A DNA stretch of 64,000 bases from Escherichia phage 215Ecol030PP: the sequence record PP328843.1. One strand, 5' to 3'. The translations under genes and the position numbers were made by a program. Every line of letters starts with the position of its first letter. The stretch's first letter is position 1. Below are positions 53,637 through 63,819 of this stretch, piece after piece. Under the pieces are notes generated by a model. It ran no database searches, was not told where the DNA came from, and was given only the letters and a program-made list of their open reading frames with translations.

Positions 53637-56600
53637 ATGGCCGAGATTAAAAGAAAGTTCAGAGCAGAAGATGGTCTGGACGCAGGTGGCGATAAAATAA
53701 TCAACGTAGCTTTAGCTGATCGTACCGTAGGAACTGACGGTGTTAACGTTGATTACTTAATTCAAGAAAACACAGTTCAACAATATGATCCAACTCGTGG
53801 ATATTTAAAAGATTTTGTAATCATTTATAATAATCGTTTTTGGGCAGCAACGGATGATATTCCAAAACCTGCTGGAAATTTTAATAGAATTCGTTGGAAA
53901 GCATTACGTACTGATGCTGTATATACAACCGTATCATCTGGACCATATCAATTAAAATCCGGAGAAGCAATTTCAGTAGATACATCAGTTGGCAATGACA
54001 TTGAGTTTACTTTACCACCTTCTCCGCTTGATGGAGAAACCGTAATAATTCAAGATATCGGTGGAAAACCTGGCATAAATCAGGTTAAAATAAATTCTTC
54101 AAATCAGAGTATTGTCAATTTTAGAGGTGAACAGGTACGTTCAGTTTTAATGACTCATCCAAAGTCACAGATGGTATTCATTTTTAATAATCGTTTGTGG
54201 CAAATGTATGTTGCTGATTATAGCAGAGAAGCTGCGATTGTTACTCCATCGACTGCATATCAAGCACAATCTAATGATTTTATCGTGCGTAGATTTACTT
54301 CCGCTGCGCCGATTAATGTTAAGCTTCCAAGATTTGCTAATCATGGCGATATTATTAATTTCGTCGATTTAGATAAATTAAATCCACTTTATCATACAAT
54401 TGTCACGACATATGATGAAACGACGTCAGTGCAAGAAGTTGGAACTCATTCCATTGAAGGCCGTACAACGATTGACGGTTTCTTGATGTTTGATGATAAT
54501 GAGAAATTGTGGAGATTGTTTGACGGGGATAGTAAAGCGCGTTTACGCATTATAACGACTAATTCTAATATTCGTCCAAATGAAGAAGTTATGGTATTTG
54601 GTGCGAATAATGGAACAGCTCAGACAATTGAACTTCAGCTTCCGACTGATATTTCTGTTGGTGATACTGTTAAAATTTCCATGAATTACATGAGAAAAGG
54701 ACAAACAGTTAAAATCAAAGCTGCCGGTGAAGATAAAATTGCTTCTTCAGTTCAATTGCTGCAATTCCCAAAACGTTCAGAATATCCGCCTGAAGCTGAA
54801 TGGGTTACAGTTCAAGAATTAGTTTTTAACGGTGAAACTAATTATGTTCCAGTTTTGGAGCTTGCTTATATTGAAGATTCTGATGGAAAATATTGGGTTG
54901 TACAGCAAAACGTTCCAACTGTAGAAAGAGTAGACTCTTTAAATGCTTCTACTAGAGCAAGATTAGGCGTAATTGCTTTAGCTACGCAAGCTCAAGCAAA
55001 TGCTGATTTAGAAAATTCTCCACAAAAAGAATTGGCAATTACTCCAGAAACGTTAGCTAATCGTACTGCTACTGAAACTCGCAGAGGTATTGCAAGAATA
55101 GCAACTACTGCTCAAGTGAATCAGAACACCACATTCTCTTTTGCAGATGACCTTATCATCACTCCTAAAAAGCTGAATGAAAGAACTGCTACAGAAACTC
55201 GTAGAGGTGTCGCTGAAATTGCTACGCAGCAGGAAACTAATACAGGTACTGATGATACTACAATCATTACTCCTAAAAAGCTTCAAGCTCGTCAAGGTTC
55301 TGAGTCATTATCTGGTATTGTAACTTTTGTATCTACTGCAGGTGCTACTCCAGCTTCTAGCCGTGAATTAAATGGTACGAATGTTTATAATAAAAACACT
55401 AATAATTTAGTTGTTTCACCTAAAGCTTTGGATCAGTATAAAGCTACTCCAACACAACAAGGTGCGGTAATTTTAGCAGTTGAAAGTGAAGTAATTGCTG
55501 GACAAAGCCAAGAAGGATGGGCAAATGCGGTTGTAACGCCAGAAACGTTACATAAAAAGACATCAACTGATGGAAGAATTGGTTTAATTGAAATTGCTAC
55601 GCAAAGTGAAGTTAATACAGGAACTGATTATACTCGTGCAGTCACTCCTAAAACTTTAAATGACCGTAAAGCAACTGAAAGTTTAAGTGGTATAGCTGAA
55701 ATTGCTACGCAAGTTGAATTCGACGCAGGCGTCGACGATACTCGTATCTCTACACCATTAAAAATTAAAACTAGATTTAATAGTACTGATCGTACTTCTG
55801 TTGTTGCTCTATCTGGATTAGTTGAATCAGGAACTCTCTGGGACCATTATACCCTTAATATTCTTGAAGCAAATGAGACACAGCGTGGTACACTTCGTGT
55901 AGCTACACAAGTTGAAGCTGCTGCAGGAAAATTAGATAATGTTTTAATAACTCCTAAAAAGCTTTTAGGTACTAAATCTACTGAAGCACAAGAAGGTGTT
56001 ATTAAAGTTGCAACTCGGTCTGAAACTGTAGCTGGAACGTCAGCAAATACTGCTGTATCTCCAAAAAATTTAAAATGGATTGTGCAGAGTGAACCTACTT
56101 GGGCAGCTACTACTGCGATAAGAGGTTTTGTTAAAACTTCATCTGGTTCAATTACGTTCGTTGGTAATGATACGGTAGGTTCAACACAGCCATTAGAATC
56201 ATATGAGAAAAATGGTTATGCAGTATCACCATATGAATTAAATCGCGTATTAGCAAATTATTTGCCATTAAAAGCAAAAGCTGTAGATAGTAATTTATTA
56301 GATGGTCTAGATTCGCTCCAGTTCATTCGTAGGGACATTGCACAGACGGTTAATGGTTCACTAACCTTAACCCAACAAACGAATCTGAGTGCCCCTCTTG
56401 TATCATCTAGTACTGCTACATTCGGTGGATCAGTTTCAGCAAATAGTACATTAACTATTTCTAATACTGGAACGGCAACTCGTCTGATTTTTGAGAAAGG
56501 ACCTCAAACTGGAACAAACCCGACTCAAACGATGACTGTCAGAGTGTGGGGAAATCAATTTAGTGGGGAATCAGACACAACACGTTCTACCGTATTTGAA

Positions 56601-57506
56601 GTTAGTGATGAAACGTCTAGTCATTTTTATTCTCAGCGTAATAAAGCTGGTAATATAACATTTAATATAAACGGTACAGTAACGCCGATAAATGTGAATG
56701 CTTCAGGAACATTGAATGCGAATGGCGTTGCAACATTCGGTAGTTCAGTTACTGCTAATGGCGAATTTATCAGTAAATCATCGAATGCTTTTAGAGCAAT
56801 AAACGGTGATTATGGATTCTTTATTCGTAATGATGGTGCTAACACCTATTTTATGCTTACTGCATCTGGCGATCAGACCGGTGGATTTAATGGATTACGT
56901 CCTTTAACTATTAATAATGCATCTGGTCAAGTAACGATTGGTGAAAGCTTAATCATTGCCAAAGGTGCTACTATAAGTTCAGGTGGTTTAACTGTTAACT
57001 CGAGAATTCGTTCTCAGGGTACTAAAACCTCTGATTTATATACCCGTGCGCCAACATCTGATACTGTAGGATTCTGGTCAATCGATATTAATGATTCAGC
57101 CACTTATAACCAGTTCCCGGGTTATTTTAAGATGGTTGAAAAAACTAATGAAGTGACTGGGCTTCCATACTTAGAACGTGGCGAAGAAGTTAAATCTCCT
57201 GGTACATTGACTCAGTTTGGTAACACGCTTGATTCACTTTACCAAGATTGGATTACTTATCCAACGACTCCAGAAGCACGTACCACTCGCTGGACACGTA
57301 CATGGCAGAAAACCAAAAACTCTTGGTCAAGTTTTGTTCAGGTATTTGACGGAGGTAACCCTCCTCAACCTTCAGATATAGGAGCGATCCCATCTGATAA
57401 TGGAATAATAGGTAATCTTACTATTCGCGATTTCTTGCGAATTGGTAATGTTCGCATTATTCCTGACCCAGTGAATAAAACTGTTAAATTTGAGTGGATT
57501 GAATAA
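53637..57506 (+). CDS. 34: long tail fibre proximal subunit gp34
   Basis: 1289 aa, late promoter upstream, repeated T-x-ETRRGIA-like motifs. Confidence 0.95.
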   Translation: MAEIKRKFRAEDGLDAGGDKIINVALADRTVGTDGVNVDYLIQENTVQQYDPTRGYLKDFVIIYNNRFWAATDDIPKPAGNFNRIRWKALRTDAVYTTVSSGPYQLKSGEAISVDTSVGNDIEFTLPPSPLDGETVIIQDIGGKPGINQVKINSSNQSIVNFRGEQVRSVLMTHPKSQMVFIFNNRLWQMYVADYSREAAIVTPSTAYQAQSNDFIVRRFTSAAPINVKLPRFANHGDIINFVDLDKLNPLYHTIVTTYDETTSVQEVGTHSIEGRTTIDGFLMFDDNEKLWRLFDGDSKARLRIITTNSNIRPNEEVMVFGANNGTAQTIELQLPTDISVGDTVKISMNYMRKGQTVKIKAAGEDKIASSVQLLQFPKRSEYPPEAEWVTVQELVFNGETNYVPVLELAYIEDSDGKYWVVQQNVPTVERVDSLNASTRARLGVIALATQAQANADLENSPQKELAITPETLANRTATETRRGIARIATTAQVNQNTTFSFADDLIITPKKLNERTATETRRGVAEIATQQETNTGTDDTTIITPKKLQARQGSESLSGIVTFVSTAGATPASSRELNGTNVYNKNTNNLVVSPKALDQYKATPTQQGAVILAVESEVIAGQSQEGWANAVVTPETLHKKTSTDGRIGLIEIATQSEVNTGTDYTRAVTPKTLNDRKATESLSGIAEIATQVEFDAGVDDTRISTPLKIKTRFNSTDRTSVVALSGLVESGTLWDHYTLNILEANETQRGTLRVATQVEAAAGKLDNVLITPKKLLGTKSTEAQEGVIKVATRSETVAGTSANTAVSPKNLKWIVQSEPTWAATTAIRGFVKTSSGSITFVGNDTVGSTQPLESYEKNGYAVSPYELNRVLANYLPLKAKAVDSNLLDGLDSLQFIRRDIAQTVNGSLTLTQQTNLSAPLVSSSTATFGGSVSANSTLTISNTGTATRLIFEKGPQTGTNPTQTMTVRVWGNQFSGESDTTRSTVFEVSDETSSHFYSQRNKAGNITFNINGTVTPINVNASGTLNANGVATFGSSVTANGEFISKSSNAFRAINGDYGFFIRNDGANTYFMLTASGDQTGGFNGLRPLTINNASGQVTIGESLIIAKGATISSGGLTVNSRIRSQGTKTSDLYTRAPTSDTVGFWSIDINDSATYNQFPGYFKMVEKTNEVTGLPYLERGEEVKSPGTLTQFGNTLDSLYQDWITYPTTPEARTTRWTRTWQKTKNSWSSFVQVFDGGNPPQPSDIGAIPSDNGIIGNLTIRDFLRIGNVRIIPDPVNKTVKFEWIE

Positions 57507-57514
57507 GAGGTATT

Positions 57515-58630
57515 ATGGAAAAATTTATGGCAGAGTTTGGACAAGGATATGTCCAAACGCCATTTTTATCGGAAAGTAATTCAGTAAGATACAAAATAAG
57601 TATAGCGGGTTCTTGCCCGCTTTCTACAGCAGGACCATATGTTAAATTTCAGGATAACCCTGTCGGAAATCAAACATTTAGCGCAGGTCTTCATTTAAGA
57701 GTTTTTGACCCTTCAACAGGAGCATTAGTTGATAGTAAGTCATATGCTTTTTCTACTTCAAATAATACTACATCAGCTGCTTTTGTTAGTTTCATGAATT
57801 CTTTGTCAAACAATAGACTTGTTGCTATACTAACTAGCGGAAAGGTTAATTTTCCTCCTGAAGTGGTATCTTGGTTAAGGGGAGCAGGAACTTCAGTTTT
57901 TCCATCAGATTCAGTATTGTCAAGATTTGACGTATCATATGCTGCTTTTTATACTTCTTCTAAAAGAGCTATTGCATTAGAGCATGTTAAACTAAGTAAT
58001 AGAAAAAGCACAGATGATTATCAAACTATTTTAGATGTTGTATTTGATAGTTTAGAAGACGTCGGAGCTACGGGATTTCCTAAAAGAACATATGAAAGTG
58101 TCGAGCAATTTATGTCAGCGGTTGGTGGAACTAATAACGAAATTGCGCGATTGCCAACTTCAGCTGCTATAAGTAAACTTTCTGACTATAATTTAATTCC
58201 TGGTGATGTTCTTTATCTTAAAGCACAGTTATATGCTGATGCTGATTTACTTGATCTTGGAACTACAAACATATCCATTCGTTTTTATGATGCATCAAAT
58301 GGATATATTTCCTCGACCCAAGCTGAGTTTACTGGGCAAGCTGGGTCTTGGGAATTAAAAGAAGACTATGTAGTTGTTCCAGAAAACGCCGTAGGATTTA
58401 CGATATATGCACAAAGAACTGCTCAAGCAGGTCAAGGCGGCATGAGAAATTTAAGTTTTTCTGAAGTATCAAGAAATGGCGGCATTTCAAAACCTGCCGA
58501 ATTTGGCGTCAACGGTATTCGCGTTAATTATGTCTGTGAATCGGCTTCACCTCCAGATATAATGGTACTTCCTACACAAGCCTCTTCTAAAACTGGCAAA
58601 GTGTTTGGACAGGAATTTAGAGAAGTTTAA
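57515..58630 (+). CDS. 35: long tail fibre hinge protein gp35
   Basis: 371 aa. Confidence 0.9.
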   Translation: MEKFMAEFGQGYVQTPFLSESNSVRYKISIAGSCPLSTAGPYVKFQDNPVGNQTFSAGLHLRVFDPSTGALVDSKSYAFSTSNNTTSAAFVSFMNSLSNNRLVAILTSGKVNFPPEVVSWLRGAGTSVFPSDSVLSRFDVSYAAFYTSSKRAIALEHVKLSNRKSTDDYQTILDVVFDSLEDVGATGFPKRTYESVEQFMSAVGGTNNEIARLPTSAAISKLSDYNLIPGDVLYLKAQLYADADLLDLGTTNISIRFYDASNGYISSTQAEFTGQAGSWELKEDYVVVPENAVGFTIYAQRTAQAGQGGMRNLSFSEVSRNGGISKPAEFGVNGIRVNYVCESASPPDIMVLPTQASSKTGKVFGQEFREV

Positions 58631-58692: not shown

Positions 58693-59343
58693 ATGGCTGA
58701 TTTAAAAGTAGGTTCAACTGTGGGTGGATCTGTCATTTGGCATCAAGGAAATTTTCCATTGAATTCAGCCGGTGACGATGTACTCTACAAATCATTTAAA
58801 ATATATTCAGAATATAATAAACCGCAGGCAGCTGATAACGATTTCGTTTCTAAAGCTAATGGTGGTACTTACACCGGTCCAATTACTATTAATTACGGGG
58901 TAAATAGTTATCTTCAATTAAGTAATAATGAAACCCCCATCCGAATTCGTTCTGGTGGCGGCACTGGTAATACTCTTGTAGTTGGTGGCTCTTCTGGCGG
59001 TATTAGTTTTAGACCAGCAGGTAGTGAAATCACTACTGGACAAATTACGATTACGCCAGAAGGTTTGACAACATTTACCAAAGCTGTAACGGCTCCATCT
59101 GTAACTGTTACATCTACTCCTTCCGCAGCATCTGATGTTACTCGTAAAGATTATGTTGATGGAGCAATAAATACTGTTACAGCAAATGCAAACTCTAGGG
59201 TATTACGCTCTGGAGACACTATGACAGGAAATTTAACTGCGCCAAACCTTTTTTCACAGAATCCTGCATCTCAACCTTCACACGTTCCACGATTTGACCA
59301 AATCGTAATGAAGGATTCTGTTCAAGATTTCGGCTATTATTAA
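58693..59343 (+). CDS. 36: long tail fibre distal connector gp36
   Basis: 216 aa, late promoter upstream. Confidence 0.9.
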
Positions 59344-59351
59344 GAGGACTT

Positions 59352-62297
59352 ATGGCTACTTTAAAACAAATACAATTTAAAAGAAGCAAAACTGCAGGTC
59401 AACGTCCTGCTGCTTCAGTATTAGCCGAAGGTGAATTGGCTATAAACTTAAAAGATAAAACAATTTTCACAAAAGATGACTCAGGTAGTGTTATAGAATT
59501 AGGTTTAAAATATGGAGGAACTATAAATGGGTCTTTAGAGGTTACAGAAAATATAACTGGAACTTTAATTGGAAATTCTAGCACAGCTACTAAATTGCAA
59601 ACACCTAGGAAAATTAATGGTATATCTTTTGATGGGTCAAAGGACATTACCTTAACTCCATCTGACATAAATGTCAATAGCACAACATTTATAAAAAATA
59701 ATGGCGAATTACCTGTTGATGCTAATTTAGATACGTATGGGCCTGTTGAAGAATATCTTGGAGTTTGGTCGAAAGCAACTTCAACCAACGCTCAACCAGC
59801 AAATAAATTTCCAGAAGAAAATGCTGTAGGTGTGCTAGAAGTATTTGTGGCCGGTCAATTTGCTGGTACTCAGAGATATACAACTAGATACGGAAATGTT
59901 TATATTCGTTCCTTGACTGCTACATGGAACGGAGTAAATGGTCCGTGGAGTGTGTGGCGAAATATTCAATCCGGTACTCGTCCACTGTCAACAACAATTG
60001 ATCTTAATGATCTAGGAGGCGCTGAACACCTTGGTTTGTGGCGAAATAGTTCAAATTCCATTGCTACCTTTGACAGAAATTTCCCAGAAGAGGGGTCGTC
60101 AGCTCAAGGTCTTTTGGAAGTATATGAAGGTGGAAACTATTCTCGTACACAAAGATATACAACCAGATTTGGTGTTGTATATACTCGTTGTCTTGCTGCC
60201 GCGTGGGATGCTTCCGCGCCTAAATGGGGACCGTGGCAACAAGTCGGTAATGTCACACCAGCGACTTTCTATGACGGAAACCTGAATGATTTTAAAACTC
60301 CTGGGTTATATAACATTTTAGGCACTGATGCCGTTATTAACTGTCCTACTGGTGAAGGTTTACCAGCCGTTATTGTTGGTTTGCTGGAAGTTAAACAGCG
60401 TGCTTCTGGTGGTGCTATTTTCCAAAAATTTACTACTGCCGGAACAGGTGCAACTACCCGCGATCGTATTTTTGAGCGCGCATATACCGGCGGTGTGTGG
60501 GGTGAATGGAACGAAGTATACACATCCTATTCTCTACCAATTACTTTGGGTATGGGCGGTATTAAATCTAACTTAGCTGAGTTAGACTGGCAAACCTTTG
60601 ATTTTGTCCCTGGTAGTATGTTTAGTGTTCCTTTGAACAAAATAAAGAACATGCCAGCTAATATGAATTGGGGCACGATTGACGGAAACTTAATTATGTT
60701 TTCTGTTGGTCCTAGCGAACATACTAGCACAGGGCGTACTGTTCAGGTTTGGCGCGGTACTGTATCCCAGACAAACTACCGTTATTTTGTCGTTCGTGTG
60801 TTCGGTAATTCTGGAAATAGAACTTGCACAGTCCGCCGTGTTGTTCTTGAAGACGGATCACATACTTGGACTGCTCAACAAAACTTTAGGGGATTGCTGA
60901 ATATCACTGCTGCTGTTAATCTTGGTGCTAATCAGAAAATTTCACTTGCTCCAGGAGCATATATTCAAGCCCCTGCTAGCGGTTCTGGTTCTAATACTTA
61001 CGCAAATCAGAATACTACCATTGCACCATTATATCAGGCCATTGACGATTCAAATAAAAACCAGTTTGCACCAATTGTTAAACAGAAAAACACTGTAAGT
61101 AATATCACCTTTGCCACTGGTATGGCTATAGGTACATCCGAATATAAGATCATTGCTCAGGGTGATTTATCCGCTAATGGAACAGCAGATGGGTTAAAAC
61201 AATGGACTTTCATGCCGTCAGGTTATTTTAAATCTCCAGGGCGTGTATATGTCGGTGATGCGTTCCTTAATACAGATGGTAATATTGCCGGTTCAATCTG
61301 GAAGAAATATAACAATGCGACAAATTTAGATGCTGCCTTGAATACTCGCGTAGGTAAAGGCGGTGATACGATGACAGGTCGGTTAACAATCAATGCACCT
61401 AATGATTCTATTGTATTATCAACAACTGCTAGTAATTCTTTGCATATTCGCGGTGACATAGACGGGACTGGTAACTGGTATATTGGCAAGGGTGGTGCTG
61501 ATAATTCGCTAGCATTTTATAGCTATGCTTCTCAGGCGGCAGTACATATCACAAACAATGGTGAGATTGCGTTAAACCCGCAAAATACCGCAATGGTTAA
61601 CGTTAACCGCGACCGTGTACACATTAACGGTTCTGGATGGATTGCTAGACAACCGGGTGATTGGGGCAACCAATGGCGAGTAGAAGCTCCATTATTCGTC
61701 GATCATGGTTATGTTTCACAGGATTGTTATTATCCTATTCTTAAAGCAAGAAGCGTTATAACCAATCAAGGATATAGCACCTCTGTTGACTTTGGTATGC
61801 GTCGTACTCCATCACAGTGGGGGCAAGCAATCATTCGTGTCGGATCCACGGAGGCTTCTCCTGATGCTGGACACCCACAAGCTGTGTTTGCATTCCATCA
61901 TGATGGATTCTTTTATACACCAGGAAATGGTAGCTTTAGCGATGTGTATATTCGTTCTGATGGTCGTCTTAAGATTAATAAAAAAGAGCTAGAAAACGGA
62001 GCGGTCGAAAAAGTTTGCCGACTGAAAGTTTATATTTACGATAAAGTTAAGTCTATTAAAGACCGTAGTGTTATTAAACGTGAAGTTGGTATTATTGCTC
62101 AGGATCTTGAAAAGGAATTACCGGAAGCTGTATCTAAAGTTGAAGTTGATGGATCTGATGTTCTGACAATTTCTAACTCTGCTGTGAATGCTCTTTTAAT
62201 TAAAGCTATTCAGGAAATGAGTGAGGAAATTAAAGAATTGAAAACGCCTCTCTTTACTAAAATTGCTCGCAAAATTAGTAAATATTTTAAATTCTAA
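59352..62297 (+). CDS. 37: long tail fibre distal subunit gp37 (T2-type, with C-terminal intramolecular chaperone domain)
   Basis: 981 aa; N-terminus [13 protein letters not shown] conserved; C-terminal 113 aa begin SDGRLK. Confidence 0.9.
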
Positions 62298-62302
62298 CAA
62301 CA

Positions 62303-62320
62303 AGGGGGAAATGCCCCCTT
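62303..62320 (+). terminator. stem-loop after gene 37
   Basis: AGGGGG-AAATG-CCCCCT between 37 stop and 38 start. Confidence 0.45.
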
Positions 62321-62333
62321 TGGAGTATAAATT

Positions 62334-63131
62334 ATGGCAGTAGTTGGAGTTCCTGGCTGGATTGGAAGTTCAGCCGTAAATGAAACAGGACAGCGCTGGA
62401 TGAGTCAAGCGGCTGGTCAATTAAGATTGGGTGTTCCTTGCTGGATGAGTCAATTTGCAGGTCGCTCACGAGAAATTATTCACACGCTTGGAGCAGACCA
62501 TAACTTCAATGGTCAATGGTTCCGAGATAGATGTTTTGAGGCAGGTAATGCACCTATAGTGTTTAATATTACAGGTGATTTAGTATCATATTCTAAAGAT
62601 GTTCCTTTATTCTTCATGTACGGAGATACACCAAATGAATATGTTCAGTTAAATATTATTGGCGCTCATATGTGGGGTAGAGGTGGACAAGGTGGATGGA
62701 CTCATTCCGGTGGAGATGGTAATGGACAACAAGGCGGGCATTGTATTCAAAACGACATTGGTGGACGATTAAGAATTAACAACGGTGGAGTAATTTGCGG
62801 TGGAGGTGGCGGTGGTGGCGGTATCGCTTATCGTCCTCACTCTGGCGCAAACTGGCAGGATATTGGTGGCGGTGGAGGAAGACCATTTGGCCCAGGAGGT
62901 GGCGGTGGTTATTCAGGAGGTGCTGCTTCTTATGACGGCCCAGGAGGTGGTTATAATTATGGTAATGCTCATTCTGGTCAGGGCGGTGATGCCGGAGGAA
63001 ATGGACAAAATGCCTGGTCTGATGGCGGTAAAGTACTAAAAGTCGGTGCAGGAGGAGCAGCAGGTTATGCTGTCATAGGATCTGCTCCAACTTGGCAAAA
63101 TGTTGGAGTAATATATGGTCCAAGAGTATAA
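62334..63131 (+). CDS. 38: gp38 receptor-binding adhesin with glycine-rich motifs (T2/S16 type)
   Basis: 265 aa; GGGGGGGG, GGGGG and GGGGG runs separated by variable segments. Confidence 0.85.
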
Positions 63132-63162: not shown

Positions 63163-63819
63163 ATGGCAGCACCTAGAATATCATTTTCGCCCTCTGATAT
63201 TCTATTTGGTGTTCTAGATCGCTTGTTCAAAGATAACGCTACCGGGAAAGTTCTTGCTTCCCGGGTAGCTGTCGTAATTCTTTTGTTTATGATGGCGATT
63301 GTTTGGTATAGGGGAGATAGTTTCTTTGAGTACTATAAGCAATCAAAGTATGAAACATACAGTGAAATTATTGAAAAGGAAAGAAATGCACGCTTTGAAT
63401 CTGTCGCCCTGGAACAACTCCAGATAGTTCACATATCATCTGAGGCAGACTTTAGTGCGGTGTATTCTTTCCGCCCTAAAAACTTAAACTATTTTGTTGA
63501 TATTATAGCATATGAAGGAAAATTACCTTCAACAATAAGTGAAAAATCACTTGGAGGATATCCTGTTGATAAAACTATGGATGAATATACAGTTCATTTA
63601 AATGGACGTCATTATTATTCCGACTCAAAATTTGCTTTTTTACCAACTAAAAAGCCTACTCCCGAAATAAACTACATGTACAGTTGTCCATATTTTAATT
63701 TGGATAATATCTATGCTGGAACGATAACCATGTACTGGTATAGAAATGATCATATAAGTAATGACCGCCTTGAATCAATATGTGCTCAGGCGGCCAGAAT
63801 ATTAGGAAGGGCTAAATAA
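63163..63819 (+). CDS. t: holin T
   Basis: 218 aa with one N-terminal transmembrane segment VAVVILLFMMAIVWY. Confidence 0.9.
   Translation: MAAPRISFSPSDILFGVLDRLFKDNATGKVLASRVAVVILLFMMAIVWYRGDSFFEYYKQSKYETYSEIIEKERNARFESVALEQLQIVHISSEADFSAVYSFRPKNLNYFVDIIAYEGKLPSTISEKSLGGYPVDKTMDEYTVHLNGRHYYSDSKFAFLPTKKPTPEINYMYSCPYFNLDNIYAGTITMYWYRNDHISNDRLESICAQAARILGRAK

Follow-up and report, generated by a model that had tools for sequence, protein, structure and literature searches.

The long tail fibre protein gp37 of Escherichia phage 215Ecol030PP ends in a predicted self-cleaving intramolecular chaperone domain of the peptidase S74 family

Results

Gene setting

At its end, the window analysed here, a stretch of 64,000 nucleotides from the genome of Escherichia phage 215Ecol030PP (PP328843.1), carries a T-even long-tail-fibre cluster and then a holin gene (Table 1), and this gene order (34-35-36-37-38-t) is shared with T2 and S16. 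Over its last 24 kb, the window is ~95–96% identical to many Tequatrovirus genomes, including those of Escherichia phages AV121 and G2540-3 and Yersinia phage PST. The product of gene 37 was matched by PHROG 1699, annotated as "long tail fiber protein distal subunit", with an E-value of 1.5e-200. The product of gene 38 was matched by the Pfam families GP38 (4.4e-66) and Gp38_N (2.9e-20), which identify it as a Gly-rich adhesin of the T2/S16 type, as opposed to a T4-type assembly chaperone.

Two other candidate features in this region were considered. An opposite-strand gene overlapping positions 61956–62297 was rejected, as the minus strand lacks ORFs of at least 50 aa there, and a hairpin located between genes 37 and 38 (-14.8 kcal/mol) was set aside as a functional element since its z-score was only -1.75 and 10 of 200 shuffled sequences were as stable.

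Table 1. Genes and features of the long-tail-fibre region, in coordinates of the 64,000-nucleotide window.
Feature	Position	Strand	Remarks
gp34	53637-57506		long-tail-fibre cluster, end of window
gp35	57515-58630		long-tail-fibre cluster
gp36	58693-59343		long-tail-fibre cluster
Gene 37, long tail fibre distal subunit precursor	59352-62297	+	981 aa, ~106.7 kDa; ORF
Predicted mature gp37, residues 1-868	59352-61955	+	~93.9 kDa; would end ...FSDVYIR after the predicted cleavage
DVYIR, last strand of predicted mature gp37			proposed gp38 docking tip
Predicted scissile bond Arg868/Ser869	61953-61958	+	Ser869 alignment and invariance
C-terminal intramolecular chaperone domain, residues 869-981	61956-62294	+	113 aa, ~12.8 kDa; predicted release after the fibre trimerises
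Pfam Peptidase_S74 core, residues 869-927	61956-62132	+	includes invariant Gly913 and G-I-I-A-Q (913-917)
Lys874, predicted general base of Ser-Lys dyad (Ser+5)	61971-61973	+	alignment and invariance
Long C-terminal helix, residues 942-979	62175-62288	+	DSSP on AlphaFold2 model; trimeric coiled coil expected
Gene 38, T2/S16-type Gly-rich tail-fibre adhesin	62334-63131	+	265 aa; directly downstream of gene 37
gp38 N-terminal attachment domain, residues 1-42	62334-62459	+	putative partner of exposed gp37 tip
Holin t	63163-63819		after long-tail-fibre cluster

The C-terminus of gp37 is a member of the peptidase S74 family

The initial annotation had placed an S-D-x-R-x-K motif at the start of the last 113 residues of gp37, and the reading frame bears this out: codon 869, the serine of the motif, lies at 61956–61958, and 113 residues run from it to the TAA stop at 62295–62297. 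The motif is short, with four specified residues, and might in principle have arisen by chance in an unrelated C-terminus; however, it occurs only once across the six frames of the 64 kb window, with an expectation of 0.008 in gp37 based on the composition of the protein, and the region as a whole gave domain-level E-values of 1e-10 to 1e-20 plus a fold match. We put the likelihood of a chance occurrence at practically nil, as it is refuted by the Pfam, conservation, profile, and fold matches presented below.

A Pfam search matched gp37 residues 869–927 to positions 1–57 of the 58 in PF13884 (Peptidase_S74, "chaperone of endosialidase"), scoring 40.1 bits against a gathering cut-off of 22, with E-values of 4.4e-10 for whole gp37 and 1.9e-11 for the 113-residue fragment alone; the significant similarity to peptidase S74 that the earlier assignment depended on is thus present. 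As the match begins at profile position 1, the family profile starts exactly on Ser869. A phmmer search of PDB sequences with the last 163 residues of gp37 identified the S16 gp37 construct (6F45_A, 3e-5) and aligned the predicted gp37 cleavage junction with the DLNVS-SDRRIK of S16. A family profile built from 36 sequences (A1) matched 6F45_A (1.7e-20), the tail fibre 8JOV (3e-13), MyRF ICA (7DC3, 1.2e-10), and the GA1 neck-appendage chaperone (3GUD, 3e-4), the deposited chain of the last of these (3GUD_A) opening with SDERHK, its first residue being the serine aligned to Ser869.

As a word-indexed search with the 113-residue fragment gave just 15 close relatives, which were short and for the most part partial, 1.84 billion cluster representatives were searched exhaustively instead, and 1414 relatives were identified at an E-value of 1e-3 or less. 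We retrieved 163 of these. The match began at residue 1 or 2 of the query in 152 of them, and the median distance from its end to the C-terminus was 5 residues, in proteins ranging from 90 to 2517 residues, i.e., the domain is almost always found at the extreme C-terminus, the position that it occupies in gp37 as the last 113 residues of a phage fibre protein. In addition, at least 25 PHROG families, almost all of them described as tail-fibre or tail proteins, were matched by the fragment at their very C-terminus, a distribution that would be expected of a mobile or shuffled terminal module.

Conservation was assessed with 153 representatives sharing no more than 50% identity. Ser869, Asp870, Lys874, and Gly913 were invariant in all 153, and Ala916 (152/153), Gln917 (149/153), and Arg872 (141/153) were nearly so. 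Ser869 was aligned with T2 Ser1243, S16 Ser638, T5 pb1 Ser1264, and K1F endosialidase Ser911, and Lys874 with T5 Lys1269 and K1F Lys916; gp37 therefore has the catalytic serine at domain position 1 and the lysine five residues on. The same Ser/Lys (+5) dyad, together with a G-hydrophobic-I-A-Q sequence, is found in the intramolecular chaperone domains of the K1F endosialidase (3GW6), the L-shaped T5 fibre pb1 (4UW8), and the GA1 neck appendage (3GUD), which belong to PF13884 (MEROPS S74).

Predicted fold of the domain

We modelled residues 857–981 of gp37 as a monomer with AlphaFold2 and alignment A1 (model residue 13 corresponding to Ser869), obtaining a mean pLDDT of 89.1 and a pTM of 0.73. 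The order of elements assigned by DSSP was a short helix, a beta-hairpin, a helix, a beta-hairpin, and a long helix spanning residues 942–979 (model residues 86–123), and thus the monomer model has the small alpha/beta unit and long terminal helix of the family, with trimer formation being predicted. The helical region that the initial annotation expected after the motif corresponds to this long helix, in the last third of the domain; the remainder of the domain is of different make-up, consisting of helices and two beta-hairpins.

A Foldseek search of the PDB returned only intramolecular chaperone domains at ranks 1–12 (7DC3, 3GUD, 3GW6, and 4UW8), with noise below rank 12. The best match and sole strong one was to MyRF ICA (7DC3; TM 0.72, 1.8e-5), while the phage chaperones 3GUD, 3GW6, and 4UW8 were individually weak matches (E-values of 0.03–0.2, TM 0.42–0.48), as would be expected when a monomer model is compared with intertwined trimers carrying long insertions. 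Like the gp37 domain, MyRF ICA is a compact form of this fold; however, it is eukaryotic, has no phage-fibre role, and lies internally in a membrane-bound transcription factor, where cleavage frees the N-terminal part for nuclear entry.

Comparison with processed fibre proteins

The closest described counterparts are in the fPS phages, for which cleavage at DVYIR^SDGRLKI, chaperone release, and gp38 docking have been predicted (Salem et al. 2021, Viruses 13:296, PMC7917993). The fPS junction is identical to that of gp37 here and the two have the same kind of gp38 adhesin, with the cleavage likewise being a prediction in that work. The chaperone domain of Yersinia phage fPS-90 is 96.5% identical to the gp37 domain; over the protein as a whole, fPS-90 gp37 is 97% identical over residues 1–524 and 81% over residues 676–981, whereas the intervening region (~525–675) is unrelated and cannot be aligned. 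More broadly, the domain is at least 95% identical in ~140 phage records.

The S16 work (Dunne et al. 2018, PDB 6F45) is cited here through passages of PMC7917993 and PMC7289586, in which the last 113 residues of S16 gp37 are described as an intramolecular chaperone removed by autocleavage once the trimer has formed, exposing the surface on which gp38 docks. By our alignment, Ser638 of the 749-residue S16 protein leaves 112 residues, in contrast to the 113 given in the relevant passage of PMC7917993. The S16 domain starts with S-D-R-R-I-K, and according to the same passages, S16 gp38 docks by an N-terminal domain through conserved tryptophans. S16 differs from the phage studied here in its pre-cleavage strand (DLNVS versus DVYIR) and in its unrelated, shorter shaft (749 aa). 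For T2 and T6, the part of PMC3157838 that concerns them, citing Drexler, Riede and Henning 1986, describes C-terminal proteolytic cleavage of gp37 followed by capping with gp38. The T2 junction is NVYIR-SDIRLK and the two proteins are 44% identical over the last 125 residues, but T2 gp37 is longer (1341 aa) and its predicted released part shorter (99 residues), lacking a basic 17-residue tail found in the phage studied here.

The more distant chaperones of K1F, T5, and GA1 likewise have a terminal coiled-coil helix and an extreme C-terminal position. However, those of K1F and T5 carry long insertions ("tentacle" hairpins) that are absent from the compact 113-residue gp37 domain, the clients in the K1F, T5, and GA1 systems are a triple beta-helix or bullet domain rather than a T-even fibre tip, and their cut ends have no adhesin cap. 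In T5 pb1, the S1264A change blocks auto-proteolysis, and Lys1269 has been proposed to activate the serine, the role of this lysine being described for K1F as well; in addition, an arginine of the neighbouring chain senses correct folding of the trimer, the sensors upstream of the cut being Asp1239 and Arg1250 (PMC4690869).

These systems bear on how gp37 would be cut. As the T2 and T6 cleavage is described in the relevant part of PMC3157838 as proteolytic only, with no mechanism given, and the 1986 T2 result, as relayed there, was first termed simply "proteolytic processing", one might suppose that a host or phage protease removes the gp37 C-terminus in trans, with no autocatalysis. Against this, the invariant catalytic serine and lysine are shared by homologues from very different hosts, homologous domains self-cleave when expressed alone in E. 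coli with a single Ser-to-Ala change abolishing the reaction (T5, PMC4690869), and S16 gp37 is described as autocleaved in the passages cited above; we therefore regard cleavage in trans as highly unlikely, and favour autocatalysis.

Similarly, a genuine S74-type chaperone could be cut after Ser869, the serine then forming the C-terminus of mature gp37. The S16 cut is reported between two serines, on the N-terminal side of the one that aligns with Ser869, in the passage of PMC7917993 that deals with it, in both T5 and K1F the serine departs with the chaperone (PMC4690869), and the deposited GA1 chaperone chain opens with the aligned serine. A cut after Ser869 is thus very unlikely, and we place the predicted bond between Arg868 and Ser869 because of the alignments to S16 (...DLNVS^S) and T2 (...NVYIR-S) and of what has been predicted in print for the same DVYIR motif (PMC7917993).

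The gp38 partner

Trp9, Trp22, and Trp37 of gp38 are identical in the window, T2, and S16, S16 gp38 being 51% identical overall to that of the phage studied here, and gp37 is thus followed by a Gly-rich adhesin with the conserved tryptophan prongs of a T2/S16-type tip. In the corresponding passage of PMC7917993, these tryptophans are prongs that enter pockets of the freed gp37 tip, and binding of S16 gp38 to the freed gp37 C-terminus is there credited to the crystal structure 6F45. By analogy with S16, gp38 would dock on the DVYIR face of the freed gp37.

The chaperone domain could alternatively stay uncleaved in the virion as a degenerate or structural cap, with gp38 binding elsewhere. This appears extremely unlikely, as the catalytic and structural signature residues are all intact in the gp37 domain, the ~140 phage records keep a domain that is 96.5–99% identical, and both the attachment domain of gp38 and its tryptophans are shared with S16, in which a freed tip is needed for docking according to the passage of PMC7917993 just cited. 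The reading that we retain is that gp37 would be cleaved and lose its chaperone, after which gp38 would dock.

Discussion

We are highly confident that residues 869–981 of gp37 form a C-terminal intramolecular chaperone domain of the endosialidase/peptidase S74 family that would be cleaved by the mechanism proposed below, and the family membership put forward in the initial annotation stands on Pfam, profile, conservation, and fold evidence alike. Our searches establish the identity of the domain, its boundaries, its catalytic residues, and its fold, as well as the presence of a matching gp38 partner. Its function as a chaperone, the need for trimerisation, the cleavage, and the gp38 docking would be carried over to gp37 from homologues whose domains are ~27–44% identical (S16 and T2) or more distant (T5 and K1F).

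Based on these homologues, we propose that the chaperone domains would trimerise via the long C-terminal helix and so bring three nascent gp37 chains into register, this helix (residues 942–979) being expected to form a trimeric coiled coil, a role taken from the T5 and K1F structures (PMC4690869). The chaperone trimer would then nucleate folding of the fibre tip from the C-terminal end. Once the tip is correctly folded, Lys874 would activate the hydroxyl of Ser869 and the Arg868-Ser869 bond would be cut in each chain, the ~12.8 kDa fragments departing as a trimer and leaving the mature gp37 chain of 93.9 kDa. Finally, gp38 would dock on the exposed DVYIR face.

The 17-residue tail of the gp37 chaperone, located past the coiled-coil helix, is basic and amphipathic-looking, with five Lys/Arg and no acidic residues, and its last seven positions are occupied in only ~6 of the 153 sampled family representatives. 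It is conceivable, although we think it very doubtful, that this tail may give the released trimer (3 x 12.8 kDa) a further function, such as membrane association, the timing of gp38 loading, or an interaction with gp57A; if so, the released fragment would not be mere waste.

The prediction in the initial annotation that gp37 is cut before Ser869 re-derives a published one. The finding is an ordinary feature of T2/S16-type long tail fibres, since a paper on near-identical phages already places the predicted cut at this motif, and conceptually it adds nothing, since accounts of the processing, its mechanism, and gp38 docking exist for T2, S16, T5, and K1F and the fPS site has been predicted; going by the literature cited here, the processing of T2 gp37 has been on record since 1986 and the S16 case since 2018. 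In practical terms, the position at which mature gp37 ends (predicted ...DVYIR, residue 868) is needed for the annotation of T-even phages and for virion proteomics. Likewise, swaps of the gp37 tip or of gp38 that are intended to alter host range should keep the junction intact and include the chaperone domain in expression constructs.

Domain composition of gp37

In the N-terminal half of gp37, the distal subunit precursor of the long tail fibre, a domain of ~90 residues is repeated in tandem (residues about 135–395), with the pattern FPEE..G.LEV.....QRYTTR.G.VY.R......W..W; the first two copies are 42% identical (E-value of 5e-18), and inspection by eye identified a third, more divergent copy. 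This repeat region matched PHROG 4618, annotated as 'tail collar fiber protein' (5.7e-40), and no Pfam family at an E-value of 0.01 or less. Further along the protein, residues 692–742 scored 22.3 bits (E-value of 1.4e-4) with the Pfam family PF20744, 'Tail fibre protein gp37 trimerization region', a borderline match given the cut-off of 21.7.

The endosialidase/peptidase S74-type chaperone domain at the C-terminus ends in a basic tail (residues 965–981) with five Lys/Arg and no acidic residues. Most family members end before this tail does: in an alignment of 153 representative homologs of the domain, 143–147 have gaps in the last seven columns of the tail. The basic tail is retained in the gp37 of close T-even relatives (Yersinia phage fPS-90), and its analogue in Salmonella phage S16 is shorter (KELKDIVKFLTK).

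Regions flanking and following gene 38

The region between genes 37 and 38 (62291–62333) carries a G5/C5 hairpin and a Shine-Dalgarno sequence, the latter followed by TATAAATT, which abuts the gp38 ATG. The hairpin has a fold energy of -14.8 kcal/mol with a z-score of only -1.75, and 10 of 200 shuffled sequences folded equally well; as it has no T-run on the + strand, it is not a classic terminator on that strand. A strong terminator-like stem-loop is found after the holin gene t, at the point where, following the gene order of related genomes, transcription meets oppositely oriented genes.

Features of the gene 37–t region and a related gp38 record
Feature	Coordinates	Strand	Remarks
gp37 tandem domain copies	about 59750–60540		
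PF20744 match in gp37	61425–61577		
gp37 basic tail	62244–62294		C-terminal end of chaperone domain
G5/C5 hairpin	62303–62319		AGGGGG-AAAUG-CCCCCU; just 3' of gp37 stop
GGAG Shine-Dalgarno sequence	62322–62325		3' of hairpin, before gp38
Stem-loop	63862–63894	+	14 pairs then T-rich tail; just 3' of gene t
gp38 of Shigella phage ESh28 (L005)	ON528738.1, 4482–5282		labelled 'tail protein and peptidase'

Annotation of gp38

Some GenBank records label the gp38 adhesin 'tail protein and peptidase' and gp37 merely 'tail fiber'. Because the peptidase-type domain of the window lies in gp37, and the only Pfam families that gp38 matched were GP38 and Gp38_N, the 'peptidase' label on gp38 looks to be misplaced.

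Mosaicism of gp37

In the phage collection searched, the gp37-gp38 DNA had no match that exceeded about 93–95% identity across its full length. At the protein level, gp37 is 97% identical to that of fPS-90 over residues 1–524 and 81% identical over residues 676–981, whereas the middle 150 residues (about 525–675) could not be aligned. This gp37 is thus a mosaic relative of fPS-90 gp37, and the comparison indicates that an internal segment of the shaft was swapped by recombination.
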